Below, piece after piece: positions 8,353 to 39,292 of a DNA stretch of 64,000 nucleotides (position 1 is the stretch's first letter; the number at the start of each line of letters is the position of its first letter). Where the stretch lies: contig CAVOZP010000006.1 of the NCBI GenBank assembly GCA_963700995.1, forward strand, positions 69,544-133,543. The letters are read 5' to 3'. The position numbers and the translations under genes were made by a program. Under the pieces are notes generated by a model, which saw only the letters and a program-made list of their open reading frames with translations, had not been told where the DNA came from and ran no database searches. This DNA is from an uncultured Acidimicrobiales bacterium. GTDB taxonomy: Bacteria > Actinomycetota > Acidimicrobiia > Acidimicrobiales > JAHEJN01.

Positions 8353-8822
8353 CCGCGGACCCGCTTGTTCCATCGACGGTCTCAAGGGATCAACGCACAC
8401 ACCCGATTCGGCCCGTCAAAGTGCGGCCTGCGGCTTGGGCCGTTCCCCGAGGTCCTGGTCGGGGTTGCTCGCGAAGTGCCTGCCGGCTTGCCGTGTTGGT
8501 GTGTCTGGCTTTCGATCGAAGAGCGCTCCGGTCGGGGTCTCGCTGCGGGGTGGCGATCGGCCGTCCGCCGGGCCGATGACCGGCCTGTTGGTCGGCCCGG
8601 CGTCTGTTGGTTCGTCGTGAGACAGTTGATGTTGCGACGGTATCGAATGGCCATGGGCGCTTCCGTTTCGTGTTGATCCCTGTGGTAACAGGAGTCGCAG
8701 GGAGGCTCGGTGACAGTTGCGGCCGCGGCTGGGCCATTGACCCGACGCCCCAGCCGGAAGTTCCGGTCAGGGACACTCATCGTGGGTCCGGATCTGCCGG
8801 CGATCGTGCCGGAGCGGATGAG

Positions 8823-8852
8823 TTGACGCACCAACCATTGTGGCCGTACAAT
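8823..8852 (+). promoter_or_regulatory. sigma70-type promoter candidate for the TA operon
   Basis: TTGACG (8823-8828), 18-nt spacer, TACAAT (8847-8852). It sits 23 nt upstream of the antitoxin ATG, which is preceded by GGAGG. CCGTACA is directly repeated around the -10. Confidence 0.4.
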
Positions 8853-8874
8853 GTCCGTACAGTTTGGAGGCGAG

Positions 8875-9165
8875 GATGGCTACGAGCACGAAACGGACGC
8901 GGCAGTGAACGGCTCGAGGTTCGTACGACGCCACAGGACCGTGCGCTCATTGACAGCGCGGTGGCAGCGTCAGGTACTGATCTCACCGAGTTCGTTGTTG
9001 CCAATCTGACGGTCGCTGCTCGCCGGGTTCTGGCGGACCGGTTGGAGTTCTCTCTCGACGCCGAGGCTCGGGAGGCGTGGGAGAGGATCAATCGCCGCGA
9101 CGCCGCGGGACCTCGCTGGGCTTCGCGAGCTGATGGTTCGGCCGTCGCCGTTCGTCGACGGGTGA
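8875..9165 (+). CDS. DUF1778 (TacA-like) antitoxin, two frame breaks
   Basis: MATSTKRTR.. / ..ERLEVRTTPQDRALIDSAVAASGTDLTEFVVANLTVAARRVLADR..AWERI.. / ..PRDLAGLRELMVRPSPFVDG*. The three frame segments join near 8905 and 9100. The stop overlaps the toxin GTG (GTGA). Confidence 0.7.
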
Positions 9166-9680
9166 CGCGGCAGTATCTCCGCCCGAGGCTCCTAGGTCTC
9201 GACGACCAGCTCGACGGCTTCGTGTGTCGCTCCCCGGAGCAGAGCCAGTGGTTGCAGCATCATGCCCGGCAGGCGAACGCGACCGGAACTGCCCGAGTTC
9301 TTGTCGTGACTCAGCCAGGGAACGCCGAGGTGGTGGCGTACTACGCGTGGTCGATGGCGAGCATCGACGTGGCTGATGCGCCGGCACGGTTGCGGAAGGG
9401 CGCTGGGCGCTACCCGCAGCCGGTCGCGTTGTTGGCTCGCCTGGGCGTGTCGGTCGACCACGAGGGCCAGGGACTCGGTGCTGGCCTGGTGAACGACGTG
9501 GTCGCGAGAGTGGTCGAGGTTGGAATCGAGATCGGGTGCCGGGGGCTGCTGGTGCACGCCGAGACGAGTGAGGCCCGGGACTTCTATATGCACCTGATCC
9601 CGGAATTCGAACCGTCGCCAACCGACGAATTGCATCTCGTGTTGTTGATGAAGGACATCGTCCGAACCCTCGCGACGTGA
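9162..9680 (+). CDS. GNAT-family acetyltransferase toxin (TacT-like)
   Basis: ..VVAYYAWSMASIDV..RYPQPVALLARLGVSVDHEGQGLGAGLV..GCRGLLVHAETSEARDFYMHL... Shows the typical pairing with a DUF1778 antitoxin. Confidence 0.8.
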   Translation: MTRQYLRPRLLGLDDQLDGFVCRSPEQSQWLQHHARQANATGTARVLVVTQPGNAEVVAYYAWSMASIDVADAPARLRKGAGRYPQPVALLARLGVSVDHEGQGLGAGLVNDVVARVVEVGIEIGCRGLLVHAETSEARDFYMHLIPEFEPSPTDELHLVLLMKDIVRTLAT

Positions 9681-12719: not shown

Positions 12720-15176
12720 GTGGCTGACTGCTGGTGGCGGTGCCGAAAGTTGACGGGGGGTGTCGTGGTGGTTCGACGGATCGCGGTGGTGGCGGGGGTG
12801 CTGTTGTTGGCGGGTGTGCTCGCCTTTGTCGGTGGAGGTGCGGTGAGCGCCCAGGACGGCGGGGGGGATCTGTCAGGGGCCGATGCCAATGAGGGCGGCC
12901 CGGGATTTGTGCTGCCTGCGAGCCGCATCACCGCCGGCAGCCTCCATTCGTGTGCCTTGTTGAACAACGGGACGGCCCGCTGCTGGGGCGTGGGCGATGT
13001 GCTCGGGTATGGGAACACCGAGTCGATCGGTGATGACGAGGTGCCGGCCTCGGCAGGGCCGGTTGATCTGGGCGTTGGCCGTACCGCCACCGCCATCAGC
13101 GCCGGCGGCTCATTGAATGGCCATTCGTGCGCCTTGTTGGACAACGGGACAGTCCGCTGCTGGGGCAGCGCCTTCTCTGGTGAGCTGGGCTATGGCAACA
13201 CCGACTGGATTGGGGATGACGAGGTGCCGGGTTCGGTGGGGCCGGTCGATCTGGGTGCGGGTCGCACGGCGACCGCTATCGCGGCGGGCGGGGACCATTC
13301 GTGTGCGTTGTTGGACAACGGAACGGTCCGTTGCTGGGGCCGCGGTGACAGCGGTCAGCTCGGCTACGGCAACACCGACTGGATTGGTGACAACGAGACA
13401 CCGGGTTCGGTGGGGCCGGTCGATCTGGGCATGGGCCGCACCGCCGTCGCGATCACCGCCGGCAGCAGTCATACATGTGCGGTGCTCGATGATGGGACGG
13501 TCCGCTGCTGGGGTGCCGGCATTTCCGGCAAGCTGGGCTATGGCAACACGAGCGACATCGGCGACAACGAAACCCCTGGCAGCGTTGGGCCCGTCGACCT
13601 CGGCTCTGGCCGCACGGCTCTGGCGGTCACTGCTGGTGGCAGCCACACGTGTGCGTTGTTGGACAACGGAACGGTTCGCTGCTGGGGTGAGGCCGGCGAC
13701 AGCACCACCCCCAGTGGGGCGCTCGGGTATGGCAACACGAACGACATCGGCGACGACGAGACCCCCGGCAGCGTAGGTCCTGTCACCCTTGGCCCTGGCC
13801 GGACGGCCGTAGCGGTCACCGCCGGTCTGTCTCATACGTGCGCCTTGTTGGATGACGGCAACGTTCGCTGCTGGGGTGCCAACTTCAATGGTGAGCTGGG
13901 CTATGGCAACACGAACGTCATCGGCGATGACGAGACCCCCGACAGCGTAGGTCCCGTCAGCCTTGGCCCTGGCCGGACGGCAGTAGCGATCACTGCCGGT
14001 GCTTCTCAGACGTGCGCTGTTCTGGATGACGGCACTGTTCGCTGCTGGGGCTACGGCCTTTACGGAGCACTGGGTTATGGCAACACGAACAACATCGGCG
14101 ACAACGAGACCCCGGGTTCGGTGGGGCCGGTTGACCTGGGCGGGCTCTTGGTGGAGGACACTGACGGAGACGGGGTGGCCGACGTCTCGGACAACTGCCC
14201 GGCGGTGGCCAACGCGAACCAGCTCGACACTGACGGTGACGGCGCTGGCGATGTGTGTGACGCTGATGACGACAACGACGGTGTGGCCGACGTCTCGGAC
14301 AACTGTCGCGTTGTGAAGAACGCCGATCAGGCCAACAACGACGGTGACAGCCTGGGCGACGTGTGTGACCCTGATGATGACAACGACGGGGTGGCCGACG
14401 GTGTCGACAACTGTCCGTTGACTGCGAATCCCGCCCAGTCCGATGTCGATGGTGACGGCCCCGGCGACGTATGCGACTCGATCGACAATCGTCGAAACCG
14501 GATCTTTGTCACCAACGTGATCCAGTCCGGGCCTGCCGAATACGACTTCGTGTTCGGCAACGCATTCGAAGAACTGTTCACTGGTGACTGGGACGGCAAC
14601 GGTCACGACGGCTTCGCCCGGCGGCTGGGGAGAACCATCGTCGAAGTCGATGAACGCGGCCGAGCGATCCGCAGGATCACCTTCGGCACCGCCACTGACA
14701 TGTTGTACCGGGTCGGTGACTGGGACGGCGACAACATCGACACGTTCGCGGTTCAACGGGGCAACGTCTTCTTCGTGACCAATTCGCCGACCGGCGGCCC
14801 CGGGCCCGCTCCCATCGGGTACGGGAGGGCCGGCGATGAGGTCTTCGTTGGCGACTGGAACGGCAACGGCCAAGACACCTTCGCGGTGCGCCGCGGCAAC
14901 GTCTTCTATGTCCGCAACTCGGTCACCACCGGGCCGGCCGACATTGTGTTCGGCTACGGGAGGGCCGGCGACGAGGTGCTGATCGGGGACTGGGACCAAG
15001 ATGGCGTCGACACGTTCGCGGTGCGCCGCGGCAATGTGATCTTCATCCGCAACGATTTCCAGACCGGGATCGCCGAGACCGTCATCGGCTATGGCAGAGC
15101 CGCCGACACGCTGTTGGTTGGCGACTGGAACGGCGACAACGTCGATACCTTCGCCGTGCAGCGCAGAGAACTCTGA
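12720..15176 (+). CDS. secreted RCC1-repeat / thrombospondin-type-3 Ca-binding repeat / FG-GAP-like repeat protein
   Basis: Signal-like RRIAVVAGVLLLAGVLAFVGGGAVSAQ. About 8 RCC1-type blades (HSCALLDNGTVRCWG..G.LGYGNT..IGD.E.PGSVGPVDLG.GRTA). About 5 DxDGDGxxDxxDNC units. Five C-terminal GDW(D/N)G.G.DTFAVRRGN.F units. Confidence 0.85.
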   Translation: MADCWWRCRKLTGGVVVVRRIAVVAGVLLLAGVLAFVGGGAVSAQDGGGDLSGADANEGGPGFVLPASRITAGSLHSCALLNNGTARCWGVGDVLGYGNTESIGDDEVPASAGPVDLGVGRTATAISAGGSLNGHSCALLDNGTVRCWGSAFSGELGYGNTDWIGDDEVPGSVGPVDLGAGRTATAIAAGGDHSCALLDNGTVRCWGRGDSGQLGYGNTDWIGDNETPGSVGPVDLGMGRTAVAITAGSSHTCAVLDDGTVRCWGAGISGKLGYGNTSDIGDNETPGSVGPVDLGSGRTALAVTAGGSHTCALLDNGTVRCWGEAGDSTTPSGALGYGNTNDIGDDETPGSVGPVTLGPGRTAVAVTAGLSHTCALLDDGNVRCWGANFNGELGYGNTNVIGDDETPDSVGPVSLGPGRTAVAITAGASQTCAVLDDGTVRCWGYGLYGALGYGNTNNIGDNETPGSVGPVDLGGLLVEDTDGDGVADVSDNCPAVANANQLDTDGDGAGDVCDADDDNDGVADVSDNCRVVKNADQANNDGDSLGDVCDPDDDNDGVADGVDNCPLTANPAQSDVDGDGPGDVCDSIDNRRNRIFVTNVIQSGPAEYDFVFGNAFEELFTGDWDGNGHDGFARRLGRTIVEVDERGRAIRRITFGTATDMLYRVGDWDGDNIDTFAVQRGNVFFVTNSPTGGPGPAPIGYGRAGDEVFVGDWNGNGQDTFAVRRGNVFYVRNSVTTGPADIVFGYGRAGDEVLIGDWDQDGVDTFAVRRGNVIFIRNDFQTGIAETVIGYGRAADTLLVGDWNGDNVDTFAVQRREL

Positions 15177-16306: not shown

Positions 16307-17927
16307 GTGGCGATGCCTGATCAGCTCTACGAACGATTGGCAACAGCACTCCGGCAAGCCGGATGCACAGCCTTGTTCGGTCTCCCCGGTGGCGGTCCGA
16401 ACCTCGACGTCGTCGGTGCTGCACTGCAGGAAGGGATCGAGTTCGTGCTCGCCCACGGCGAAACCGAGGCCGCGATCATGGCGGGCACCTACGGGCTGTT
16501 GACCGGCACTCCCGGCGCAGTGGTCGCGACACGTGGCCCAGGCGCCACGTCGCTCGCAAACGGAGTCGCCCAGGCAACACTCGACCGCTTCCCGCTGGTC
16601 GCGATCACCGACACCGTTCCCGCTGCACAGTCTTCGAGAGTTGCTCATCAGCGGATCGATCAACGATCGTTCTTTGCGCCGATTTCGAAGACGAGCGCAA
16701 CGATCGGGCAACACGCCAGCGTGCAGCACCTCACGGAGTTGATCAACGAATCGACCCTCTGGCCGTACGGCACAGTCCACCTCGACTACGACCCCACCGA
16801 CACCACACCTCGGCGCGACCGCTCCCGGAACCGTGTGGTTCGTGAACCGACGACAAGTGACATTGCGGCGGCCACCGAGCTGCTCGCGCGAGCCGCCACC
16901 CCTGTCGTCGTGCTTGGTGCCGAAGCCGTCCCGCACGCAGCGGCGCTGCGGCCGCTTCTCGAACGAGCCGGCGCTCCGGTTCTCGACCACCTATCGCGCC
17001 GTCGGTGCGGTGCCGACCGAGGGCTTTCTCAACGCCGGTCTGTTCACGAACGGCAAGCTCGAGTCCGCAGTCCTCGGTGACGCCGACCTGATCGTCACCG
17101 TCGGACTGGATCTCGTCGAACCGATCCCTCGACGATGGGGCTACGACGCTCCGGTGATTCGGGTTTCTGCGGTTGACCAGGTCGACGATTACCTACCTGC
17201 CACGGTCGATCTCGTCGGTGCAATCGAGTCGACCTGCAAGGAGCTGTTCGGTCGCGTTGCCCCAGGTGCTGCTCGCGCCCAACCCAGGTACGCATCCGAC
17301 GCACGCGAAGCGGGGCGTCGGCAGATCCGCCAATGCGACACCACCGCGTTCGGACCCACCACGCTGGTCGATGCCGTGGCCAAAGCCCACCCTCGAGACT
17401 CCATCGTCACGGTGGACGCCGGGGCGCACTTTCTTGCGGTGATGCCGCTCTGGAGCGTCGACCGGCCGAACAGGCTGCTGATCTCGAATGGGCTGGCCAC
17501 CATGGGATTCGCGGTACCTGCGGCGATCGGGGCCGCAATTGCCACTCCCGGATGCAACGTGATCGTGTTCACCGGAGACGGCGGCATGTCGATGATGCTC
17601 GCTGAGCTCGAGACGATCGCCCGACTACAACTGCCGATCACCGTCGTGGTGTTCAACGACGCGACGCTCAGCCTGATCAAGATCAAACAGACGGCCCGAC
17701 ATGGCGGCCACCGGTCCGTCAGCTACGCCCCGGTCGACTTCGCCAAGATTGCCGAAGCAAGCGGTCTACGAGGCGTCGTGGTGACATCGTCAGACGAACT
17801 CGACGCCGAACTGGCACTTCACAAATGGGGAGAACCGCGTGTGATCGACGCACGAATCGACCCATCCGCCTATCCGGCAATCATCGACGCGACCCGTGGC
17901 GCGACCAGCCGGGGCGCATCGGCATGA
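16307..17927 (+). CDS. thiamine-diphosphate-dependent enzyme (acetolactate synthase large-subunit-like), frame broken near 16980
   Basis: N-terminal ..LFGLPGGGPNLDVV..VLAHGETEAAIMAGTYG..ATRGPGATSLANGV.. ThDP motif ..VFTGDGGMSMMLAELETIARLQLPITVVVFNDATLSLI in track ORF 16833..17927. Confidence 0.8.
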
Positions 17928-17958: not shown

Positions 17959-19899
17959 TCACTCGGGAAGCTCCATGACGTACACGTCCTGTTGTCCGTT
18001 GGTGTCGCCGTCGACCAGCCCGCTCGACGTCGAGAAGGTCGCCGAACGGCCGTCGCCGCTCAGCTCGAGCCGATCGAGCCCGAGCGAGTTACTCAGTTGA
18101 ACGGTGCTGCCGTCGAGAGTGTCCAGGACGAGGCTCTGTCCATTTTGAGTGGCCATCGCGATGTAACGACCGTCGGAGCTGATCGAGCTGGGTGAGGTCC
18201 AGAAGTCGGGTGCGAGCTCCAGAATCATCGTGTACTCGCCGATCGACCGGTCGTACACGAAGATGTCGTAGAAGCCGTTTACGTCATCGGGCACGAGACC
18301 TGGTGTGAATGACGGAAACACGAACCGCTCACCGTCGGGGTAGGGGAGGAGGCCGCCCTCCACGTCGGGAATACCGTCGAGTTTCGTGACGCTCCCCGTG
18401 TCGCGTTCGAAGATGAAGGCTCTGCTGTGGAGCTCGGATGTCACGACAAGGGAGCCATCGGGGGTCACCGCTGGTGGCGACACGCTTGCCCCCTCTCGCG
18501 TCATGTCGAATTCGGCGACCAGGGTGGTGGCGCCCGTCGTGGTGTCGTGGACCCAAACTGTATATACCGGCGGACGACCGTCCTCCCCCTGGGCAGCGGG
18601 GACGCCGCCCGGAGCAAGTTGGCCCCCGGGGTAGGTTGCGTAGGCGATGAGGGTGCCGTCGTCGCTCATATCGGGGTCGATGCTTTCTGACGGATGTTCC
18701 TGACCGTTGGGCATGAAGCTGATGTAACTGTTGCGTCCGGTCTCACGATCGTGGAGGTAGATGTCGCCGGGGCTTGTCTGTTCGTAGTCGGGATCGAGGT
18801 TTGTGGCGTCGGATGCAAACGCGATGTAGCGGCCATCTGCGGAGATCTGGGGGTCATGGCTGGCTCCCTCGGCCTCTTCGACTCGGTCGCCGAACACGAC
18901 TTGGCTGACTCGGGTGGTTTCGCCGGTCTCTCGGTCGTGGACGAACACGTCCCTGTTCCCGTTGGTGTCGCCGTCGACCAGGTTCGATGCCATCGAGTCG
19001 AATGCGACGTACCGGCCGTCGGCCGAGATGACCGGGTTGACGCTGTGGCCGTCACCCTGGGTCCCGTCGCTGGCGACGCTGACTCGGAATATCGTTTCGT
19101 TTTCGGCGGCCCCGAGTGCGGATTCGTCGCCCTGCTCGGAGACCAGTGGTTCGCTGCCGCCGGGTTCCTCCGAGACCAGCGGTTCACCCTCACCCGGTTG
19201 CTCGGCAACCAGCGGTTCACTTTCACCTGCAACGTCGACGGTTGCACGCTCGCTCGACCCCTGGTCGTTGCCCGCCAGAATCAAGCCGATACCAACGCCT
19301 CCGGCAACCAGAGCCGCGGCCGCCAGGCCAACGAGCGCAGTTCGAGGGATCCGGAGCTTCCGCCGCGAACGTCTTGGCGATGGGGCAGCGGGCGGCGCGA
19401 TACCGCGCTCGGCCAACATCGAACCGACCATGCCCTGCAACGAAACGGCGTGATCAGCGATCGATCCGGGGAACAGGTCGATCCACTGGGCGAGACGCAA
19501 CAGGTAGTTCAGGGTGCCGGTCGGGGCTACGTCCTCGACTCGGACCGGTAGCAGTGGCTTGGCTCGCTCCACCGCCAGATCGACCTCACGGGCGACATGC
19601 GCTGAGCCGCTCGCGTTCGCCGAGACGACGATCAGCATCACGTCGCACGATTCGATCGCTGCTTCGATCTGTTCGGGCCACGGTGTGGGGCCGGCGACAT
19701 CGTCAGGAGCCATCCAACAGGCAAATCCACCTGCTTCGAGATGGGCCCGAATCTCGCGGGCCAGGCCGTCGTCGGTCTTCTCGTGACTGATGAACACCAC
19801 ACCAGGGCGCAACGGCGACACGGGCGACGGCTGATCGCTCGGCGTGTGTGGCACTGCGTGTGGGCGCGAGATCTGCTCGGTGGGGTTGGAGTCGTCCAT
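17959..19899 (-). CDS. TIR domain - TM helix - PD40/TolB-type beta-propeller protein (TIR-A)
   Basis: From ATG 19899: TIR-like VVFISHEKTDDGLAREIRAHLEAGGFACWMAPDDV..VMLIVVSANASGSAHVAREVDLAV. TM helix TALVGLAAAALVAGGVGIGLILAG. Three 12-aa linker repeats. Propeller repeats SADGRYVAFDS, SADGRYIAFAS, SDDGTLIAYAT, SSDGRYIAMAT with DGDTNG..DV(F/Y)V. The 308 upstream codons of the track ORF overlap TIR-B and are rejected. Confidence 0.8.
   Translation of the reverse strand: MDDSNPTEQISRPHAVPHTPSDQPSPVSPLRPGVVFISHEKTDDGLAREIRAHLEAGGFACWMAPDDVAGPTPWPEQIEAAIESCDVMLIVVSANASGSAHVAREVDLAVERAKPLLPVRVEDVAPTGTLNYLLRLAQWIDLFPGSIADHAVSLQGMVGSMLAERGIAPPAAPSPRRSRRKLRIPRTALVGLAAAALVAGGVGIGLILAGNDQGSSERATVDVAGESEPLVAEQPGEGEPLVSEEPGGSEPLVSEQGDESALGAAENETIFRVSVASDGTQGDGHSVNPVISADGRYVAFDSMASNLVDGDTNGNRDVFVHDRETGETTRVSQVVFGDRVEEAEGASHDPQISADGRYIAFASDATNLDPDYEQTSPGDIYLHDRETGRNSYISFMPNGQEHPSESIDPDMSDDGTLIAYATYPGGQLAPGGVPAAQGEDGRPPVYTVWVHDTTTGATTLVAEFDMTREGASVSPPAVTPDGSLVVTSELHSRAFIFERDTGSVTKLDGIPDVEGGLLPYPDGERFVFPSFTPGLVPDDVNGFYDIFVYDRSIGEYTMILELAPDFWTSPSSISSDGRYIAMATQNGQSLVLDTLDGSTVQLSNSLGLDRLELSGDGRSATFSTSSGLVDGDTNGQQDVYVMELPE
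19129..19227. repeat. 36-nt x about 3 in-frame tandem repeat in the TIR-A linker
   Basis: Encodes GESEPLVAEQPG / EGEPLVSEEPG / GSEPLVSEQGD. Coordinates derived by codon counting from 19899. Confidence 0.7.
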
Positions 19900-20094
19900 G
19901 GTGCCGACCTGAGACAATCGTTCTGCACGGCTGCTGAACTTCGATCTTCCACCATCAATTGAAGGATGGAAGGGCACCTTGCTGGTAGAGCACTTGGGCC
20001 CGATTCTCCGGCGAGTCGTGCACGCTCCGAGGGTCGCGTCGGTCTGGTGACGAAAGGCACTTCCGTGGGGCATCCGCATCGTCACATGATGTGG

Positions 20095-20874
20095 ATGAGT
20101 CCAGACAGGCGCGCGCCTTGGCAGCCGGTCATGTGGAGGGAGGCGCACGTGGCGCATGACGTGTTCATCAGTTACTCGTCTACCGACAAGGCCGTGGCAG
20201 ATGCTGCGTGCGCCACGCTCGAGAAGCGGAGGATTCGTTGCTGGGTGGCCCCACGCGATGTGCCGGCCGGTGTTTCGTGGGCCTCGTCTCTGGTCGAGGC
20301 CATTGGTGGCAGCAGGGTTGTCGTCCTGATCCTCTCGAAGGGATCGAACAGCTCGCCGCAAGTCATCCGTGAGGTGGACGAGGCGGTCGGGACGGGGATC
20401 CCGGTCGTGCCGCTGCGTATCGACGACGTCGAACCGTCGGACCAGATGCGCTTCTACATCAAGTCGGTGCACTGGCTCGATGCCCTCAGCCCGCCGATGG
20501 AAGAGCACCTGAAACGCTTGGCCGACTCGGTCGAGGCCTTGTTGGCGGTGGGCGACGACCGACGGCCGCCGCTCGGAGAGCAGCCCGGCGACAGCCCGAC
20601 CACGCCTCGTGCCGTTTCGGCTCAAATCCTCGAGACCGGCAGAGTCGTCGATGCGGTCGTCACGAAAACGTCGATGGACATGGCGACACTCAGCCTTCCC
20701 GACGGCAACATCGGCAAGATCATCCTGCCCGACTATCGGCTGCTCCTCGTTTTCAAGCCGCTCAAATGGCTGAGCCGCAAGTACGCGGTGGGAGACCGCC
20801 TCACGGTCAGGATCAAGCGGCACATGCGGACCGGGAACTACTCGTGTGAGCCCTACATCGATCCAACCGTGTGA
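20095..20874 (+). CDS. TIR domain protein with C-terminal OB/S1-like module (TIR-B)
   Basis: HDVFISYSSTDKAVADAACATLEKRRIRCWVAPRDVPAGVSWASSLVEAIGGSRVVVLILSKGSNSSPQVIREVDEAV..HWLDALSPP. C-terminus GRVVDAVVTKTSMDMATLSLPDGNIGKIIL..GDRLTVRIK. Start is 20095 (by analogy with TIR-E) or 20131. Confidence 0.8.
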   Translation: MSPDRRAPWQPVMWREAHVAHDVFISYSSTDKAVADAACATLEKRRIRCWVAPRDVPAGVSWASSLVEAIGGSRVVVLILSKGSNSSPQVIREVDEAVGTGIPVVPLRIDDVEPSDQMRFYIKSVHWLDALSPPMEEHLKRLADSVEALLAVGDDRRPPLGEQPGDSPTTPRAVSAQILETGRVVDAVVTKTSMDMATLSLPDGNIGKIILPDYRLLLVFKPLKWLSRKYAVGDRLTVRIKRHMRTGNYSCEPYIDPTV

Positions 20875-20884
20875 TCAGTCGCGG

Positions 20885-22576
20885 CTATCTCGCTGAGGAC
20901 CCTCCACAGTAGGAAACGATCTGATAGCCGGCGCGCGCCAGAAACGCTGGGATCCCTCGGACGGCCTGGCGATCCTGCTCCTTGACACCGTCGCTCAGCT
21001 CATTCCATGGCACCAGGTACGGCGAGGTCTTCGCGTCGACGTCTCTGGGGCCCGAGGTCCATCCGTTGCGTCGACGTTCGTGCACCCATCGTTCGTGCTC
21101 CATCTCCGAGAGCATCTCCACCTCCGCGTCGGTGAAGGTCACTTCGTGGGCGTCCCAGTCGGTGAGCGGAGCGATTCCCCGGCCGATGGCGGCGAGCTTG
21201 GTGCCGATGTGGCCGGCCTGGTCTCGGTTCGACTCCTTGAGCGATGCCGCGAGCTTCTCCCACGGCGCCATGGAGGGATTCGTTTCCGGCCGTGCCCCTC
21301 GGAGTCGTTGCTGGGCCACGTACTCCTCGTGGGTCGCTCGAGCCAAGATTTCGTACGTGCCACCGAGAAGGAGATCGGTCTGCATGGTTCGGTCGAGGAC
21401 GCTGAACGCCCGAATGCGGCCGGAGTGAGTCGGCCGGTCGACCAATCGGCCGAGCGCGCCGGTGTGGCTCAGTTCGACCACGATGAGGGCGTCGGGCATC
21501 TCCAGGCAGCGTTGGATCGCAAGGCCGGCTCGGACAGAGCGCGAGTCGTCGTCGATGCAGATGTAGATCGTCTTCGCGGCTGATTCTCCGATGGCATCGG
21601 TGTCGACCGGGTCGATGGCGGCGACCACCGGGTTGATGTTCGCGGCGTGGTCGAGCTGTGGGTAGCGGCGGCACAGTCGGTCGATGATCGTGTTGGCGTC
21701 GGGATCCACGACCGTGATGTCGATGGGCCGGCCTCGGGCGGTGGGGTGAGCTCTCCATTGGCGGGCGAGCTCGGCCACCAGGGTCTGACCGAGCCGATTC
21801 AACCCGACCACCATGACGGCAGTGAGGCCATCGTCGAGTTCGTCGGCCGGAAACGGCGAGAAGTCGCGGAGCATGAGCCGGGCACCCTGCTCGTCGATGT
21901 TGAAGAAGTCGAGACGCGTGCCGGCGGGATGACTCGCGGCGAGCTCGTCGGATCGCATGAGCACGCAGAGATCCGGATCTCGGATGCGGGCGAGACACGA
22001 CAAACCGGGGCCCTGCCGCTCGGCGACCAGGTCCATGGCGTCGAGGACCACTTCGGCGTTGGTCTCATCACTGCCGGTGAGACAGACGAGATGCGCGGCA
22101 CGAGCCAAACGGGCCCGTCGAAGCGTGTCACGGTCGCGCGCATCGCCGACGATCACGGCGGCACCTCGGTGACGACTGGCCACGATGGCGGGGTTGAGCC
22201 CATCGGCCTCGATTCCCACGACACGTTGACCTGCGTCGAGGAGTTGTGTCACGAGCCTGGTACCGGCTGTGCCCAGGCCGCAGACGACGACGTGGTTGCG
22301 GGTTCGCCCGAGACGCCACTCCCGTATCTGCTCGCTGAAGGCCGTCGAAACTGCGGCAATCAGTGCCGTCGCCGAAGCCGCCGGCGCTGCGAGCCGCGCC
22401 ACTTCGAGCTGCCACGGTGCGCCGGTCGCCGGGACGCTGCCGGACTCGAGCGTGAAGAGTTGAAGGCTCAGGTAGACGACGTCGGATGTCGACTTGGCGA
22501 TACCCGCCTCATCGAAGTACTCACGGAAGCCGACGTAGCCGAGGACGAAGGCGGTCACGGTGAAGGCGGCCAGCAA
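20885..22576 (-). CDS. 2-TM pore-loop channel-like / tandem TrkA-N (RCK) Rossmann / tandem RyR-repeat protein
   Basis: TM1 AAFTVTAFVLGYVGF. Pore-helix-like VVYLSLQLFTLESGS, with no TVGYG filter. TM2 LAAPAASATALIAAVSTAF. GxGxxG motif VVVCGLGTAGTRLV and a second VMVVGLNRLGQTLV. C-terminal RyR-type repeats THEEYV..APWEKL..SNRDQA and MEHERWVHERRRNGW..YLVPWNELSDGVKEQDRQAVRGIP. Confidence 0.8.
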   Translation of the reverse strand: MLAAFTVTAFVLGYVGFREYFDEAGIAKSTSDVVYLSLQLFTLESGSVPATGAPWQLEVARLAAPAASATALIAAVSTAFSEQIREWRLGRTRNHVVVCGLGTAGTRLVTQLLDAGQRVVGIEADGLNPAIVASRHRGAAVIVGDARDRDTLRRARLARAAHLVCLTGSDETNAEVVLDAMDLVAERQGPGLSCLARIRDPDLCVLMRSDELAASHPAGTRLDFFNIDEQGARLMLRDFSPFPADELDDGLTAVMVVGLNRLGQTLVAELARQWRAHPTARGRPIDITVVDPDANTIIDRLCRRYPQLDHAANINPVVAAIDPVDTDAIGESAAKTIYICIDDDSRSVRAGLAIQRCLEMPDALIVVELSHTGALGRLVDRPTHSGRIRAFSVLDRTMQTDLLLGGTYEILARATHEEYVAQQRLRGARPETNPSMAPWEKLAASLKESNRDQAGHIGTKLAAIGRGIAPLTDWDAHEVTFTDAEVEMLSEMEHERWVHERRRNGWTSGPRDVDAKTSPYLVPWNELSDGVKEQDRQAVRGIPAFLARAGYQIVSYCGGSSAR

Positions 22577-22686
22577 GAGCCAGCCGCGTCGAGCGCCAGG
22601 CTGCGGTCAACTTGACGCCTACTGAGCGACGAAGGGACCGGCGCCGGGTGACCGGGTCGTTGGGGTTCACCGGACGTCACCCCTTC

Positions 22687-25315
22687 TCACGCATCGAGGG
22701 TGACGACGCGCAGGCCGACCGTTGCGAGGAGCTCGGGGATTGCCTGCACCACCAGCCGATCCTTGTTCCGTGCGCGTTCGTTCCCAGCCAGCGATCCCGG
22801 ACCCAGCCGGCGTCTGACCGAGTAGGGATAGCGGGCGATCCGCTCGGCGTCGGTCATCGGGGCCCAGGGCACCAGATCCGGGTCGGTCCAGGGTGCCTCA
22901 CCGTCGTTGCCCCAGCAGAAGCCCTCGGCGACCCTTTCCGCGATCCAGCGGTCGTGTTCGAGTTGAGCGAGTCGTTCGATGATCTGGGGAGACAGGTCGA
23001 CCACGGGTTCTGCGCCGTTCCCGAGCGGGGCGAGGGCGTGACCGATGATGGCGAGCTTTCTGGGGATGTCGAGCACGGCGGCCCGGCTGGCCGACCGCTC
23101 GGCGTCGCTCAGCTCGTCCCAGGGAGGCCAGGAACCCCAGTCGTTGTCGGCTGCGGCGGTTCGGAAGCGCTCGTGCAGGCCCTTGGCGAGCTTCTCGGCG
23201 AGGGGCCCAACGACTGGAACCCGGCGTGCGAGCGTGAGGAACTCCTCGTCGTCGACGTGGAGGCGCAGCTGGGTTGCCGGAGGCAGGGCCGACCGGTGGT
23301 AGTGCTGTTCGCCGGCGAGGCGGCTGCCGGCCACGATCGACTCCATCGAGCGAACGCCGTGGCGGAATCGGCGCACATCCAGGAAGGCGCCGGCGACGTC
23401 CGGGTCGACGGCGAGCTCGCGGACTCCGTCGGCTCGCGGACGCCAGAGCTGCGGCCACGTCCGAGTGAGCAGGGATTGCAGCACGATCGCGCGACGAATG
23501 ACGTGCTCGGGGTCAGCCGCGGGGTCGTCGGTGCCGGGATCGGGGCCGAGGATGTCGACGGTGGCCCGCAGTCGGCTCAAGAAGTCGGGCCCCTTCACGC
23601 TTCGGAATCGAGCCGTGCGTTCCTCGCCGGATCGGCCCAGATCGCGTCCGAGGTCGTCGAGGCGTTCTGCTGTTCCGCCGGCGAAGACGAAGATCGCCCG
23701 GCCGAACGGATGGACGACTGGCCCGTCGTGGAACTCGCCGTCCTGCATCGGGGCGAGGAAGTGCGGACAACCGAGCGGTTGGCTCCGCGGTGGTATCGAA
23801 CTCGTCCCAGAAGACCAGCGGCACGGGGCCGACAGACCGGCGTCACGTACGAGATGGAACGCGGTGATGGAGCTCGTCGGGTCTTTCGACCTGCGACAGG
23901 TTGAAGGTCAGCTTCTCCACCTCACCGGCGTGCAGCGAGCGAGCGAGCTGTTTGACGGCGAACGACTTGCCCGACCCTGGCGGCCCGAAGACAGCGATCG
24001 ACAGCGGTCGCGGTGGTCGGGGCAGGGCGCAGTATTCGGCAATCAGGTTCTGGACACTTCGGAACCCCTCGATCTCGCGACGATCGGCAGTGAGGAGGGC
24101 ACCGAATCGACCAACGGGCATGCCCTTCAGCGCGGGCCCCGGGCCGAGCCGCACGATCTGCCTTGCGAGGTGATCGAAGCCGCCGATGTGGTGCTCTCGC
24201 AGGATCGACCACTGGCCATCGTGGCCGGTGGGTGGTGGCACGACGGTCGTGGCGAAATCGTCTGGCTCGCGTTGGAGCGCGGCCGCGACGGTTTCGTGGG
24301 GGAACCGGATGGCGGTGCTTCCGGGCTCGGGAGCGATGAAGCCGGTCTCGTGCAACGCGCGCAGCGCAGTCAAGCCGCGTCGAGCGCCGTCGACGAGCGC
24401 GACTTCGGCCGACATCGTGGTGAGCGTCGACGCCAAGCCGACCGTGAGGCAGGTCGTTCCCCCGATCATGCCGCCTGGCCGATTGGCCTCCCAGGTCCCT
24501 TCCATCTCGCGCGGATCGAAGACCAGCTTCGAGTCGAGCTCGAGGTCGGGGCTGCGGCGGTGGGCAACGAATGCGCCTGCCGCCCCGAACGATACGACGA
24601 CGTCTGCGGCCTGCGCGAGCGGAGCCAGCTCCGTCGCTGACGAGAGCGCCCGGGCGAGGTCTTGGGCCGAGGCCTCCCAGGACATGCCCCGGCTCACCTC
24701 CACACCCGAACGCCGGACGTCGCCGACGGTGGTGACGACGACGAGGCGCTCGATGTCGAGGTCGAGCAGGCGCCGGAACAGGGCGCTGCGACCGAACAGG
24801 TCGGAGGTCTTCAACACGACGACCCGCGGCGCCGCGGCGGCCTGCTCACGGATGGACGACGGCCACAGCTGCGGGTCTTCGCTGAAGCCCAGTCCGCCGT
24901 CGTCAAGGAGCGCGACGTCGGGGCTCGCAGCATCATCCTCGACCTGCGCCCACTCGGCGGCAGGCGGGCACATGTCGTCTCGGCGCGCCAAGCCGAGGTA
25001 GTCGCCCATCCGCCAGACGGGCTCCTTCGAAGTGTGGGTGAAGGGGTAGGGCGCCCACGCCGCGCTCGAGTGATGGAAGCGCCGATCGTCGGGTCGCGGG
25101 GGTGCGCCGGTGGGAATCGACCGAACATCGGCCTCGATTGCCGCTCTCGTGAGTGAGGCGAGCAGGCACGCACCACCGGGCTGCAGGCTGATCGATGCGT
25201 ACTGTTCGCCCGACCAGGACACTGTGGTCGAGGTCGGGCTCATGTCGGCCACGTTCCAGTCGAGGGTGACGTCGCCGGCGATTACCAGGGTCGGCACGGG
25301 AGTGGCCGATGTCAT
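22687..25315 (-). CDS. PfkB/ribokinase-like domain + AAA+ ATPase + tandem RyR-repeat protein, three frame breaks at 23770-23870
   Basis: N-terminus TLVIAGDVTLDWNV..QPGGACLLA..LLDDGGLGF..FGAAGAFV..RPGGMIGGTTCL is ribokinase-like but lacks the GAGD anion hole. Walker A AVFGPPGSGKSFAV, Walker B PLVFWDEFDT, then FLAPMQDGEFHDG..AIFVFAGGT. C-terminal RyR-type repeats LHERFRT..PPWDELSDAERSASRAAVLDIP and LEHDRWIAERVAEGF..DLVPWAPMTD..NKDRLVVQAIP. Pieces are track ORFs 23843..25675, 23513..23824 and 22687..23748. AFHLVRDAGLS reads in the third frame. Confidence 0.75.
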
Positions 25316-26532
25316 GTCGAGGCTCCCTCGGGCGGGGCTGTCATGGTGAAGTAGTCGAAGCCCAAACCGTCGATGTCGTCCCCGAAGTCCTTCGCGGCCG
25401 TGGTCGGCTCCGGCGACGAGTCGAAGCGGATGTTGGAATAGGTGACCGGGGCACTCTGGCCGTATTTGACGAGCGCGATGCGGCCACTCCGGTTCATTTC
25501 CGGTGACAGCACGACCGAGGCGACCTTCTGGTCGTCGACGAGAAGACTGCCGAAGTCGCCCACCACCTCGATCTTCATGGTGAAGGTGTCGCTCGTCTCG
25601 CCGTCGAGCACCATTTGATTCTCGAAGAGCCACTCGGTGCCGTCGTAGATCGTGTGGGCTCGTACGGCCTGCCAAGCACCTGTGATGTTGAAGATGAGCG
25701 AGCCCTGCGACCAGCTCGGCCCGTCTCCATAGACCACAACCATGCCCTCGCCGAAGCCCGTGAAGTCACTGGTCACGTCGATCTCGAGCGCGAAGTCACC
25801 CTCGATGGTCTCTTCGGTCCAGGCGAACGTGTCATCCGAGCCGGTCGCCCGGTACGTCTCGGGAGCAGGACTCGACCATTGACTGTCGTTGGGCACGACG
25901 AACGACAGGGTCTGTCCTTCGTCGCCGGGGTCCGACCCCGATCGGGAGAGTGCGAAGACGAGCGATCCGACGACAACCATGGCCAGCGTCGCGCCGATGA
26001 CGGCCAGGGTTCTCGCCGGGAGGCGGCGTCGGGGCCGAGGAGCCGCAGTCGTGATGTCCGGTGCGGGAGCGACGGTGTCTGCGGCCGACTCCACCTCCAA
26101 CGCGGCGTCGACGAGGGCGGAGAGCCTGCTCAAGTGGCGCTCGAGGGGCGGGGTCAACGCGTCGAGCCAGTGGATCGACTTGATGTAGTAGCGCATCTCG
26201 TCGGAGGGTTGAACGTCCTCGATCCTGAAGGGGATGATGGGCAGGCCGTTGTCGACTGCTTCGCCGACCTCTCGGTTCACCTGGGGCGACGCGTTGGAGC
26301 CCTCGGACAGGATCAGAACCAAGATGCGGCTGCGGCCGATCGCTTCGACGAGCGAGGCCGCCCAGGATCGACCCGGTGGTACGTCGCGAGGCGCGATCCA
26401 GCACCTGGTGCCGTTCGCTTCGAGAGCCGCACACGCAGCATCTGCGACGGCCTTGTCTCGCGCTGAGTAGCTGATGAACACGTCGTGAGTCACGGGTTGC
26501 CTCCCGGCGCCGCCAGGCCTCCTTGAGTTCAT
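25312..26532 (-). CDS. TIR domain - TM helix - DUF1080/concanavalin-like jelly-roll protein (TIR-E)
   Basis: HDVFISYSARDKAVADAACAALEANGTRCWIAPRDVPPGRSWAASLVEAIGRSRILVLILSEGSNASPQVNREVGEAV. TM helix TLAVIGATLAMVVVGSLVFAL. C-terminus ..FALEIDV..GMVVVYGDG..TMKIEVVGDFGSLLVDDQKV..GRIALVKYGQSAPVTYSNIRF. The stop overlaps the next gene's ATG (ATGA). Start taken at ATG 26532. Confidence 0.8.
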   Translation of the reverse strand: MNSRRPGGAGRQPVTHDVFISYSARDKAVADAACAALEANGTRCWIAPRDVPPGRSWAASLVEAIGRSRILVLILSEGSNASPQVNREVGEAVDNGLPIIPFRIEDVQPSDEMRYYIKSIHWLDALTPPLERHLSRLSALVDAALEVESAADTVAPAPDITTAAPRPRRRLPARTLAVIGATLAMVVVGSLVFALSRSGSDPGDEGQTLSFVVPNDSQWSSPAPETYRATGSDDTFAWTEETIEGDFALEIDVTSDFTGFGEGMVVVYGDGPSWSQGSLIFNITGAWQAVRAHTIYDGTEWLFENQMVLDGETSDTFTMKIEVVGDFGSLLVDDQKVASVVLSPEMNRSGRIALVKYGQSAPVTYSNIRFDSSPEPTTAAKDFGDDIDGLGFDYFTMTAPPEGAST

Positions 26533-26769
26533 GGAACCCAGAGCTGGTCCTCCCGACCAGAGGCTTTTGGCCACGCCGAAGCTCGCGCGCGCAGTGTTGA
26601 GCGGCAGAGGGCCCTCGACACCGACAGCCCATCCCATCGGGTCTGTCGATGTTTGGCCAGCTCAGCTCGCTTCGCCCAGAGGCCAAGGTCCACGCAATGG
26701 GGGTCATGCTGCTTGGCTCTGTGTTGATCTCGGTTTGGTACCTGGCAACCGGCGACGAGGGCGTTGTCG

Positions 26770-36743: not shown

Positions 36744-39292
36744 TCACTCGTGGGCGATCGCGTCCAACACGTTGAGGCGAGCGGCCCGCCGCGCGGGGAA
36801 CGACGCGGCGACGAGTCCCGCGATCGTGGCGATGATGACGTAGATCACGAGCGTCGTCGTGGGGATCGCAAGCCGGTTGATGACCGACTCGGGGATGGCG
36901 AGAACGGCCAGCCACCCGAAGAGCAGACCCACCACGACGCCCAACAGTGCTCCGAACAGCGACACGATGGCGGCTTCGAGACGGATCATGACGCGTGTCT
37001 GTCGGCGGGTCATGCCGATCGCTCGCATCAGACCGATCTCTCGGGTCCGTTCGAGCACCGACAGCGCCATCGTGTTGGTGATGCCCAACAGTGCAATGAC
37101 GATCGCCAGCCCGAGGAATACGTTGATGATCACGAGGAACGAGTCGAGCGCACCCTCCAGTCGGTCGGTCCACTCCGACTGTGTCTCGAACTGCAGCTGG
37201 GGGAGTTCCGATTCGAGCGGCGCCAGCGCCGCGTCGGCGGTCGCCAGATCGACCCCTTCGGCCACCCGGGCCGAGATCACGCTGTCGTTCTGGGAGTCGA
37301 AGTTGGCGTCCCAGCTCGACAGGTCGACGACGTAGTGCCCGATGAGGAACTCGTTCTCGTAGATGGCCCCGACGGTGAGGGTCTGCACGCCGGTCGCTGC
37401 GAATTCGACGTCGATGGTGTCGCCGACAACCACGCCCTCGTCGTCAGCCGCTTCTTGCGACAAGACAATGGAGCGGGGCTCGGCACTGGCGGCCGGGTCG
37501 CCGGAGAGCACGCGAACGTCGAGCAAGTCGGTGAGCACCGTCAGATCGGTACCGGCAAGGCCCTTTTCCGCTCCCGTCGATGCGGATGTTGCCCCAGCGC
37601 ACCGCCGAGACCGTGTCGAACTCGGGGAGCTCGGCGACCTGTGCGGCGATCTGGTTGCTGAAGCCGACATCATCCTCCGAGGTGATCACGTAGTCGGCGA
37701 TCATCGTGGATCCGAGCTCGGATCTGAAGGTTGCTTTGAGCGACTCGGCGACCACGCTCGCCATGGCGATCAGAGCCAGCCCGATCATCAGGCCGGCGGC
37801 CGTGGAGGCAGTACGTTTGTTGTTGCGGGCCGCGTTCTCACGGGCCATGTGACCGGTGAAGCCGCTGCCGGGTACGTGCTCGAGTGGTGCACCGAGCAGC
37901 GACGCCGACGGGCTGGAGAACAGCGGCGCGTACATCGACACGGCCACGAATACCAGGACCGCGCCAACGCCGAGTGCCATCAGGAGCAGGGCGGTGTTGT
38001 CCGACCCGCCGAACAGGCCGTAGGCCATCGCGGCCACGCCGAGCACCGAGAGGATGATGGCGATGATCGTGCGGCGCGTGCCCTCGCCGGAGCCGAATCG
38101 GAAGCCGGACCGCATTGCGGCAATCGGTGGCACCTTGGCCGCGCGGCGGGCCGGTGCCAGCGAGGCGAGGAGGGTGACGCCGATTCCGACGATCAGCGCA
38201 ATGATGATGGTGCGCGAGGAGATGATGATGTCCATGCTCGGCAGGGTGAAGCCGAGGCTGTCCATGAGGCCGCGGAGACCGAGGGCAAGGAGCACCCCGC
38301 CGCCGAGGCCGAGCACCGAGGCGATCACGCCGACGACGATGGACTCGAAGATCGAGCTGAACCGCACCTGCCCTGAGCTCGCCCCGAGTGCCCGCAGCAG
38401 GGCGAGTTGGCGGACCCGCTGGCCGAGAATGATGTTGAAGGTGTTGCCGATGATGAACGTACTCACGAACACGGCCACCAGTGCGAACGCCAGCAGGACG
38501 GTACCGAAGATGTCAACGATGGCGGTGAAGTCTTCCTGGGCCTCGTCGACGACGACATCGCCGCTCACGGCTTCGACATCGGCGGGCAGCACCGCTTCGA
38601 GGCGATCGATCAACACATCGGGCTCGACGTCGGCGGCGATGTCGATGTACTGGACCAAGCCCTCGGTGCCGTCGAGCCGCTGAATCTCGTCGAGGCTGAA
38701 CGAGGCCATCACGGCTCCGGCCAGCCCGTTCTCCTCACCGAAGCTGTTGAGGCCGACGAGCTCGAACGGTTCGCGACCGTCGACCCCGACGATGTCGTAG
38801 GTCTCGCCCAACACGAAGCCCTCGCGTCGGCGGTGCCGACGTCGAGTGCGAACTCGTTCGGACCGTCGGGAATCCTTCCCTCCACGAGCGTCAGCGTGTC
38901 GAGAGAGGAGTCGCCCCAGTTGATCGCGAAGATCGGTGCGAGCACGTCGATGGTCGTGCCGTCGCCCTTCAAGGGAATGACCTTCAGGCTCGTCGTGATG
39001 GGGATGGCCTCACGGACGCCGTCGACGCTCTCGACGACCTCCAGGAGACCTTCGTCGAACGGGCGGTCGCTGAGATCGATCTCGGAGAATTCGTCGCGCG
39101 CGCGTGGACCTCCACGTCGACCTCCGCGTTGGCCTCCTCGATGATGGTGTCGAACGTGCGGGTGAGCCCATCGGTGAGGACGAAGGAGGCTACGACGAAG
39201 CTGACGCCGAGGAGCACGGCGAAGGTGGTCAGGGAGAATCGCAGCTTGTTGTGGGTCAGGCTGCGGATGCTGAGCTTGAACATCGTGCGCAT
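36744..39292 (-). CDS. ABC transporter permease with two FtsX domains (MacB-type), at least 3 frame breaks
   Basis: Pieces are track ORFs 38984..39292 (MRTMFKLSIRSLTHNKLRFSLTTFAVLLGVSFV), 38709..38972, 37444..38814 (..LRALGASSGQV..) and 36744..37673 (..MRAIGMTRRQT..SFPARRAARLNVLDAI). Confidence 0.8.

Follow-up and report, generated by a model that had tools for sequence, protein, structure and literature searches.

A bacterial pore-loop channel-like protein with RCK domains and ryanodine receptor repeats, encoded in a TIR operon: a candidate effector of TIR signalling

TIR-derived nucleotides are an immune language common to bacteria, plants, and animals. To our knowledge, the Repeat12 fold of ryanodine receptors (RyR) was shown to bind isomers of cyclic ADP-ribose (cADPR) only in 2026, and only for phage anti-defence proteins. 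Here, we describe a gene (20885..22576, minus strand) from a 64,000-nt stretch of an uncultured Acidimicrobiales bacterium (GenBank assembly GCA_963700995.1, contig CAVOZP010000006.1, positions 69,544 to 133,543), which is called the window below. The encoded protein, the target of this study, combines a pore-like N-terminal domain with two RCK/Rossmann domains and a tandem pair of RyR repeats, and its gene is the last of an operon that starts with a TIR gene. On balance we lean, at modest confidence, towards the view that the target is a tetrameric, GsuK-like RCK-gated pore-loop cation channel, which carries a Glu-containing loop in place of the K+ signature and is gated by a TIR-derived ADP-ribose (ADPR) nucleotide via its RyR repeats.

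The animal RyRs (Repeat12/Repeat34) are alike in carrying RyR repeats on a cation channel. SLOG and NUDIX are the two ADPR-binding modules of TRPM2, and in related loci, genes next to the channel gene (named here for its predicted fold) code for a TRPM-type SLOG domain (LSDAT_prok) and for NUDIX proteins, which echoes the SLOG and NUDT9H domains of TRPM2. The animal RyR and TRPM channels have pores with six transmembrane helices (6-TM), however, which are unrelated to the predicted 2-TM, RCK-gated pore of the target. Animal RyRs have about 5000 aa whereas the target has about 600 aa and is devoid of SPRY, EF-hand, and other RyR domains.

Two RCK domains per subunit, as found in the target, also occur in BK. 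GsuK from Geobacter sulfurreducens (PDB 4gx0/4gx1/4gx2/4gx5) shares both the 2-TM pore and the two RCK/Rossmann domains per subunit. Unlike the target, it has a canonical K+ filter, no RyR repeats, and no known link to TIR proteins, and the sequence identity is only 12-17%. GsuK is multi-ligand-gated and is activated by ADP and NAD+ (PMC3510474).

Two phage proteins with the RyR fold have been reported. RyDEP from mycobacteriophage DyoEdafos is a glycosidase or sponge that acts on 2'cADPR as well as 3'cADPR, its key residues being H75, W78, H100, and D117, while the phage RyR homologues tested were mostly binders, not enzymes (preprint PMC13232231). The 'RyR Tad' protein gp68 from Pectobacterium phage CB1 binds 1''-3' glyco-cyclic ADPR (gcADPR) via H129/W132, K147/H154, and K170/D171 (10.64898/2026.06.04.730250). 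The target shares their PF02026 fold and, at ligand positions, has kept H-x-x-W, a basic residue, and D-R. In contrast to these small, soluble, homodimeric counter-defence proteins, its RyR repeats form a covalent tandem pair that is fused to a predicted host membrane channel.

In terms of function, the nearest precedents are Thoeris systems that have membrane effectors. Type X Thoeris consists of a TIR protein and the 'ion channel' effector ThsK; it is defensive in experiments and its signal is unknown (10.64898/2025.12.03.692087). Its TIR gene adjoins the gene of a pore-loop-like membrane effector, much as TIR genes accompany the predicted channel in the window. ThsK, located via the published TIR sequence (L082:3369-3995), differs from the target by the absence of RCK and RyR domains, and its TIR protein is of the ThsB/DUF1863 type rather than TIR_2. 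We considered whether the target is a type X effector and rejected this, because ThsK has 208 aa, lacks RCK and RyR domains, and shows no similarity (BLASTP E = 48). ThsK, which has no Pfam domain, carries a degenerate pore-helix/filter motif (AIYLSVANAFTLTYGGFSP) with motif-level likeness to VVYLSLQLFTLESGSVP of the target.

The target fits none of the described Thoeris effector families: it has no PADLOC match, and neither RyR nor TrkA is part of the 29-type Thoeris catalogue. In the text and supplements of that catalogue (10.64898/2025.12.03.692087), neither TrkA nor NUDIX occurs, and 'ryanodine' is found only in an aside of the Discussion on animal cADPR signalling. The two phage RyR preprints (PMC13232231, 10.64898/2026.06.04.730250) mention no host RyR channel. 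Surveys from the Aravind group (eLife 2020, eLife 2021, Viruses 2022) do not mention RyR/ryanodine or TrkA in their text; ryanodine receptor papers occur in the eLife 2021 survey in the reference list only. The combination of an RCK-gated channel, a TIR-signalling effector, and the ADPR-binding RyR fold thus appears to be undescribed in the literature searched.

Gene model and predicted pore

The features of the channel gene are as follows (all on the minus strand; residue numbers refer to the 563-aa open reading frame, ORF; helices are from AlphaFold2, AF2, models):

20885..22576: annotated channel ORF, 563 aa, with predicted pore-loop domain, RCK1, RCK2, and tandem RyR repeat
22584..22670: the 29 codons of the true N-terminus, VNPNDPVTRRRSLRRSVGVKLTAAWRSTR, read from a different frame with GTG start at 22670; the intact form has 594 aa, like homologue P0121
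22505..22573: TM1, residues 2-24; AF2 helix, ends with G-x-x-G-F as does TM1 of MthK
22451..22489: re-entrant 'pore helix' (P-helix), residues 30-42, TSDVVYLSLQLFT; short AF2 helix with Y35 and Q39 in 65/65 homologues
22415..22450: loop at the filter position, residues 43-54, LESGSVPATGAP; occupies the columns of GYGD in paralogues with a canonical pore
22340..22414: TM2 / inner helix, residues 55-79; AF2 helix
21857..22300: RCK1 / TrkA_N Rossmann domain, residues about 93-240; GLGTAG and E123, detected by Pfam
21386..21829: RCK2-like second Rossmann domain, residues about 250-397; from the AF2 model, with G258 and G263 in 65/65 and D291 in 63/65 homologues
21155..21364: RyR repeat 1, residues about 405-474; H416, Y419, W439, E448, S449, and R451 are invariant
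20906..21124: RyR repeat 2, residues about 485-557; Pfam RyR match with H494, W497, R511, D535, and R536

A first-pass annotation, made from the sequence alone, had described a channel-like protein at 20885-22576 with the strand left unstated. The ORF (22576..20885, TTG start) and all of the quoted peptides were found on the minus strand, namely AAFTVTAFVLGYVGF (residues 3-17), VVYLSLQLFTLESGS (33-47), and LAAPAASATALIAAVSTAF (62-80) from the pore-like region as well as VVVCGLGTAGTRLV (96-109) and VMVVGLNRLGQTLV (254-267) from the RCK modules. The ORF has no premature stops and a third-position GC content (GC3) of 0.79, the level typical for coding sequence in the window (the GC content is 0.64-0.66 in about the first 22 kb and about 0.68 in the remainder). 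Pfam assigns TrkA_N to residues 96-208 (3.6e-21, 76.1 bits, cut-off 23.8) and RyR to residues 485-553 (1.9e-14, 54.1 bits, cut-off 27.4), whereas none of its ion-channel families was matched. Matches to NCBIfam were restricted to RCK models of TrkA, Kch, and Kef, all sub-threshold. Some JGI records label homologues as 'voltage-gated potassium channel Kch'.

While the reading frame is real, its N-terminus is truncated as assembled and is short of its initial 31 codons. Homologues typically have 590-600 aa with a basic N-terminal tail that ends with ...W-R-x-x-R-W-P-L-L, and P0121 (594 aa; from the same 90% cluster and at least 90% identical to the target) begins with MNANDPVNRRRSVRGSVDVQLTAVWRSTRWLLLAAF. 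In the window, one surplus C at about 22583 (+1 frameshift) parts VNPNDPVTRRRSLRRSVGVKLTAAWRSTR from WLLLAAF... of the channel ORF. This frameshift is probably an assembly error. Homologue P0017 (83% identical to the target) is also frameshifted, in its case at the C-terminus. Split genes are also found among unrelated genes of the window: a thiamine pyrophosphate (TPP)-dependent enzyme (16307-17927; N domain separated from M+C domains) and an FtsX/MacB-type permease (36744-38814). Because these are split in the same way, we read the frameshifts of the window as assembly indels and not as specific decay. This suggests an indel-prone assembly, possibly a metagenome-assembled genome from long reads.

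The ORF product was modelled as a monomer with AF2 on 65 homologues, to which all conservation counts refer (predicted local distance difference test score, pLDDT, 89.5; predicted template modelling score, pTM, 0.83). In this model, the two Rossmann domains comprise residues about 95-240 and about 253-397. When the model was compared to the PDB by Foldseek, the dual-RCK K+ channel GsuK was the top match (E = 2e-11), with about 583 columns for full-length GsuK chains; TrkA, KtrA, MthK, Slo1, and Repeat12 of human RyR3 are found further down the list. The N-terminal 92 residues were also modelled alone (pLDDT 91.7), and the same succession of TM1, P-helix, loop, and TM2 was obtained. When this isolated domain was compared to the PDB, tetrameric pore-loop channels made up about 45 of the top 50 matches, among them the MthK pore (template modelling score 0.55-0.60, root-mean-square deviation 3.4 Å, 80 columns) as well as NaK, KcsA, GsuK, K2P, Slo2.2, and KvAP. 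The TM1 / pore-helix / TM2 layout claimed by the first-pass annotation is thus reproduced, including the re-entrant pore loop, which consists of the short helix (residues 30-42) and the subsequent loop (43-54). Membership in the wider tetrameric pore-loop cation channel superfamily is supported, by fold only, by these models.

The alignment points in the same direction. Seven loci (L067, L069-L071, and L076-L078) code for an RCK-RCK-RyR body behind a canonical K+ pore, ...WWA.VT.TT[IV]GYGD[IF].P..., and MAFFT places FTLESGS of the target in the TTVGYGD columns of these paralogues and of MthK. The filter also lies at the same distance as in the canonical-pore paralogues, both from the preceding G-x-x-G-F of TM1 and from the HVVVCGLG strand that follows. 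The earlier statement that TLESG takes the place of TVGYG therefore agrees with the alignment; of the comparison to Ion_trans_2/MthK-type pores, the MthK part holds for both structure and alignment columns but Pfam returned no Ion_trans_2 match. An alternative register was obtained when a profile of the N-terminal region alone was compared to the PDB: it places LGYVGF on the K2P filter TIGFGD (K2P E about 1, non-significant). We rejected LGYVGF as filter, since it falls at the end of TM1 in the structure models, by comparison with the canonical-pore paralogues, and in the alignment to MthK.

The P-helix and the loop are conserved as strongly as the RyR repeats and more strongly than TM1 or RCK2 (Y35 and Q39 in 65/65, L40 and W55 in 64, G46 in 62 homologues). 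A mere membrane anchor would lack such a constraint on pore helix and loop, which disfavours an anchor-only function of the N-terminus. The filter position reads T-L-E-S-G, unlike the K+ signature T-[VI]-G-[YF]-G. This, together with the absence of an Ion_trans_2 match, indicates that the target is not K+-selective by signature. E44 is found in 57/65 homologues, the other eight having Asp (four) or Gln (four). The bacterial voltage-gated Na+ channels (BacNaV: NavAb/NaChBac, filter TLESW) are similar in this region: the target motif YLtLQLFvLESGs compares to the BacNaV filter YTLFQVMTLESWS (NavAb sequence checked in the PDB). The likeness found by hhalign (P = 0.0024, 28 columns, probability 12%) concerns a motif only and lacks statistical security. 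In contrast to BacNaV, the target has no voltage sensor, and a P2 helix is not predicted. The sequence hints at a ring of Glu residues at the filter and at non-K+ selectivity.

RCK domains and RyR repeats

Both Rossmann domains retain features of nucleotide-binding sites. In RCK1, the signature glycines G100, G102, and G105 are found in 64-65/65 homologues, and beta2 ends with an acidic residue (E/D123) in 64/65; in RCK2, the target has N260 where the middle Gly of GxGxxG is expected, and D291 is located at the end of beta2. NAD(H) and adenine nucleotides are possible ligands of these sites. The family profile matches TrkA in the PDB at 4e-18 and the repeats of RyR1-3 at 1e-21 to 5e-25.

The RyR repeats constitute a helical, pseudo-dimeric module (residues 400-555) in the AF2 model. 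The two repeats (about 407-474 and about 490-557) align with each other (E = 2e-8), and the pair covers 188/206 residues of Repeat12 from human RyR3 (template modelling score 0.56 by Foldseek). AF2 model, Pfam matches to TrkA_N and RyR, and this internal alignment agree with the predicted order of two Rossmann/RCK modules followed by two RyR repeats. With the pore-loop matches of the N-terminal domain, they also bear out the earlier claim of a bacterial protein that joins a channel-like pore to RyR repeats. When a viral structure library was searched, phage RyR-domain proteins were the best matches. A tblastn search of the RyR pair against phage genomes returned only three weak matches; the connection with phage RyR proteins is drawn from Pfam, from structure, and from the direct alignment to CB1 gp68.

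The ligand positions were mapped by direct alignment of CB1 gp68 with the target family:

Tad H129: H494, in 63/65 homologues
Tad W132: W497, aromatic in 65/65
Tad K147: R511, Lys or Arg in 64/65
Tad D171: D535, in 60/65
Tad H154 (RyDEP H100): S/T518, thus differing, with Ser/Thr in the target family
Tad K170: residue 534, variable

Repeat 2 has thus kept four of the six Tad ligand positions. In repeat 1, H416 and Y419 are found in 65/65 homologues, but N450 replaces the Asp. In our view, the signal is most likely sensed by the RyR pair and not by the RCK domains. The first-pass annotation had proposed nucleotide-sensing modules and had emphasised RCK domains; the nucleotide-binding features (GxGxxG and acidic beta2 residue, and most of the RyR contact residues) are kept, but the emphasis shifts to the RyR repeats.

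Long family members (up to 1298 aa) differ by additional RyR repeats alone, and channel-TIR fusions were not encountered among them. In P0245 (1298 aa), P0248, P0272, and P0297, the RCK pair is followed by an array of RyR domains, of which Pfam detects three to four or more. The RyR module is therefore expandable.

Operon and gene neighbourhoods

In the window, a minus-strand operon has the order TIR, AAA/STAND-like NTPase-RyR, and channel gene. The adjacent genes are:

25312..26637, minus strand: first operon gene, TIR_2 protein of 441 aa with a single transmembrane helix and, at its C-terminus, an extracytoplasmic domain
22687..25315, minus strand: second operon gene, with an N-domain of about 450 aa without an assigned family, an AAA/STAND-like P-loop, and a RyR pair
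19966..20874, plus strand: convergent TIR_2 protein, 302 aa, ending 10 nt from the stop codon of the channel gene
17959..19899, minus strand: TIR_2 protein with a single transmembrane helix and a PD40 beta-propeller; ATG start at about 19899

The stop codon of the TIR gene overlaps the start codon of the NTPase-RyR gene (ATGA), which is preceded by the ribosome-binding site GAGGGAG, and a gap of 16 nt separates the end of the NTPase-RyR gene from the GTG start (22670) of the channel gene. NTPase-RyR proteins from related loci are encoded by a single gene of about 860-915 aa; in the window, a frameshift near 23860 has resulted in two ORFs (25675..23843 and 23748..22687). The TIR proteins encoded at 25312-26637 and 17959-19899 have an N-terminal cytoplasmic TIR domain, one transmembrane helix, and a C-terminal extracytoplasmic domain that is beta-rich or consists of PD40 repeats. 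This layout, in the style of Toll-like receptors but with reversed order, suggests envelope sensing. In the three TIR proteins of the window, S..x..(N/I/A)-R-E-V is found where the catalytic Glu is expected (read by eye).

Relatives of the target are scattered across many phyla, with 166 found among 185,579 species genomes (one genome per species); an exhaustive library search returned 2076 clusters (50% identity) at E <= 1e-30. Gene neighbourhoods (+/-10 kb around the channel gene) were analysed for 80 loci that were retrieved for the 166 relatives. These are from Actinomycetota, Chloroflexota, Gemmatimonadota, Acidobacteriota, Bacteroidota, Planctomycetota, Pseudomonadota, Armatimonadota, and other bacteria, and also from archaea (Methanoperedens and Methanomassiliicoccaceae). 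TIR_2 genes were found in 35/80 loci, and DUF4062-NACHT-WD40 giants in 11/80. DUF4062 has been described as a TIR-like NADase (10.64898/2026.05.01.722283). TIR or DUF4062 genes taken together occur in 44/80 loci, and in about 17/25 of those having at least 8 kb on both sides (tally from tables). In 19/80 loci, the channel gene directly adjoins a TIR gene (<600 nt). As an internal control, we determined how the density of TIR/DUF4062 genes (per 10 kb) decays with the distance from the channel gene:

0-1 kb: 2.3
1-2 kb: 0.97
2-6 kb: about 0.4
6-8 kb: 0.17
8-10 kb: 0

The association with TIR genes, as presumed by the first-pass annotation, is thus reflected both by the ATGA overlap and the 16-nt gap in the window and by a distance-dependent linkage to TIR/DUF4062 in related loci.

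A second RyR protein is recurrent and has two forms, either the NTPase-RyR type seen in the window or RelA_SpoT-TPR-SLOG(LSDAT_prok)-RyR. The latter, with an alarmone-synthetase-like RelA_SpoT domain, is paired with the channel at L013:6871-9441, L025:13883-16372, L059:7625-10531, and in 8 more loci; in the usual order, the gene for RelA_SpoT-SLOG-RyR comes first, a small NUDIX gene second, and the channel gene third. Such a NUDIX gene is located directly upstream of the channel gene in about 10 loci, and a ClpB-like double AAA+ protein is encoded in 10 loci.

In loci devoid of TIR_2, DUF4062-NACHT/STAND-WD40 giants are encoded beside the channel (L006:2495-7270, L014:8546-12187, L036:8999-15472, L010:1557-4586, L047:15755-18781, and L029:5983-8331). 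A protein from Methanoperedens (L036:2983-6186) has HsdM_N+N6_Mtase as its N-terminal module, fused to NACHT-WD40.

A neighbour family termed 'C4' occurs in 16 loci and shows the motifs GVTGHR...LAEGADR...W-D-G...GGT. It may be SLOG/SLATT-like, by resemblance of these motifs; searches against Pfam, PADLOC, and PDB profiles returned no matches. It is found alone (about 200 aa) or with a C-terminal extension having multiple transmembrane helices (about 540-740 aa); examples are L046:7596-8243, L032:2101-2685, L070:11533-13365, L071:11502-13733, and L048:8256-9884. The sister subfamily with the canonical filter (TT[IV]GYGD) is from Armatimonadota, Abditibacteriota, and Vicinamibacterales (L067:9065-10873, L069:2924-4747, L070:9761-11536, L071:9779-11581, L076-L078:9758-~11485) and adjoins TIR and 'C4' genes.

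Some other proteins of the window should be mentioned. The 302-aa TIR protein (19966-20874) has a C-terminal tail of about 100 residues (GRVVDAVVTKTSMDMATLSLPDGNIGKIIL…GDRLTVRIKRH…) that may have an OB/S1-type fold. Encoded on the plus strand are a protein with RCC1 and thrombospondin-type-3 repeats (12720-15176), a Gig2-like (PF07350) protein (4352-6037), and a third protein that contains a TacA1 antitoxin-like domain (8607-9680).

Proposed function, competing explanations, and significance

The most economical reading is that the target is the membrane effector, or one effector, of a TIR/NADase signalling system. From the architecture and fold, the conserved residues, and the linkage seen in the operon and in gene neighbourhoods, all described above, we infer ligand, gating, ion selectivity, and immune role as follows. 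Upon a trigger, which would be sensed by the two TIR proteins with extracellular domains in the window and by STAND-WD40/TPR proteins in other loci, the neighbouring TIR proteins would use NAD+ to make a signal derived from ADP-ribose, either an isomer of cADPR or a related compound. This signal would bind to the RyR repeats on the cytoplasmic face, and binding would act on the RCK ring so that the pore opens; the RCK domains may also integrate the NAD(H)/adenine-nucleotide status. The resulting cation flux would collapse ion gradients or the membrane potential, so that the infected or stressed cell would cease to grow. The non-selective conductance, the depolarisation, and the abortive infection that the first-pass annotation put forward should be regarded as equally conditional.

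Several observations weigh against this reading. Concerning the pore, the Foldseek E-values of the isolated domain (0.26-2) are singly non-significant, Ion_trans_2 is not matched in Pfam, PDB sequence-profile searches did not detect a pore, and the loop at the filter position is variable among related loci (LESG, LQSG, LEGG, ISAP, and others); the conducting homotetramer is a prediction from monomer models. At the ligand site, the two Tad positions that correspond to residues 518 and 534 are not kept, and the RyR module might degrade the signal rather than sense it, because the H...D dyad of RyDEP is retained (H494, D535). Concerning the genes, PADLOC returned no matches for the target, its partners, and the canonical-pore paralogues, about one-third of the well-flanked loci (about 8/25) are devoid of TIR or DUF4062 genes within 10 kb, and both RyR genes of the window (the channel gene and, near 23860, the NTPase-RyR gene) are frameshifted.

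Four other explanations draw on these points. A housekeeping cation or K+ channel under control of cellular NAD(H)/adenine nucleotides in the style of GsuK or Kch, with the RyR repeats as an accessory module for regulation or oligomerisation and the TIR genes as incidental neighbours, would account for the well-flanked loci lacking TIR or DUF4062, for the Kch naming in JGI records, and for a best structural match, GsuK, that is NAD+/ADP-regulated (PMC3510474). We consider this unlikely, given that TIR/DUF4062 genes are concentrated within 1 kb and their density is zero by 8-10 kb, that the window operon shows translational coupling, that the NUDIX, SLOG-RyR, and STAND-WD40 partners are typical of conflict systems, and that the 166 relatives are patchily spread among the 185,579 species genomes. 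Slightly less likely still is a membrane-tethered sink or reset device, the RyR module of which removes TIR signals in the style of RyDEP/Tad while NTPase-RyR, RelA_SpoT-SLOG-RyR, or C4 proteins act as effectors. A sink would require neither a conserved pore domain nor two RCK domains, yet the pore helix is constrained as strongly as the RyR repeats; the NUDIX genes are already plausible candidates for a reset, and the phage homologues tested were mostly binders (PMC13232231). That the dyad equivalents are well conserved (H494 in 63/65, D535 in 60/65) and that several other candidate effectors are encoded in the same loci speaks in its favour.

We regard it as improbable that the N-terminal helices only anchor a non-conducting NAD-binding sensor or scaffold to the membrane, as could be argued from the variable loop, the missing K+ signature, and the missing Ion_trans_2 match. 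The isolated domain consists of TM1, P-helix, loop, and TM2 and matches the MthK, NaK, and KcsA pores, paralogues bear a canonical TTIGYGD pore at the same place, and Y35, Q39, G46, and W55 vary hardly or not at all. To the same low degree we credit the explanation that the locus is a decaying, functionless pseudogene cluster in this genome. The frameshifts of the channel gene (about 22583) and of the NTPase-RyR gene (near 23860), and also that of P0017, would fit such decay, but the TPP enzyme and the FtsX permease are split alike, which points to assembly indels; moreover, the channel ORF has retained its coding-type GC3 without premature stops, and the intact, near-identical P0121 (594 aa) exists.

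If our preferred reading of a channel gated by a TIR-derived nucleotide is correct, Thoeris-like immunity would gain one more kind of sensor domain and also a new class of effectors, an RCK-gated pore with RyR repeats. A host channel with the RyR fold in TIR operons would then be the missing receptor side of the cADPR-RyR story, and with its size of about 600 aa, the protein would be a small and tractable bacterial model for the decades-old question whether cADPR-type nucleotides gate channels directly via RyR repeats. More tentatively, and as a possibility to which we give less than even weight, the family might be the prokaryotic counterpart of the animal axis from cADPR to the ryanodine receptor, with a TIR-made cADPR isomer that opens the channel by acting on a Repeat12-type RyR module; the RyR repeats, SLOG, and NUDIX domains of animal RyR and TRPM2 might then stem from one TIR/NADase-linked bacterial conflict system. 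The occurrence of RyR repeats, TRPM-type SLOG, NUDIX, TIR, and DUF4062 in one neighbourhood bears on the origin of the nucleotide sensors of animal Ca2+-release channels, and, if this is true, it is suggested that Repeat12 of the animal RyRs would be an ancestral sensor of ADPR signals.

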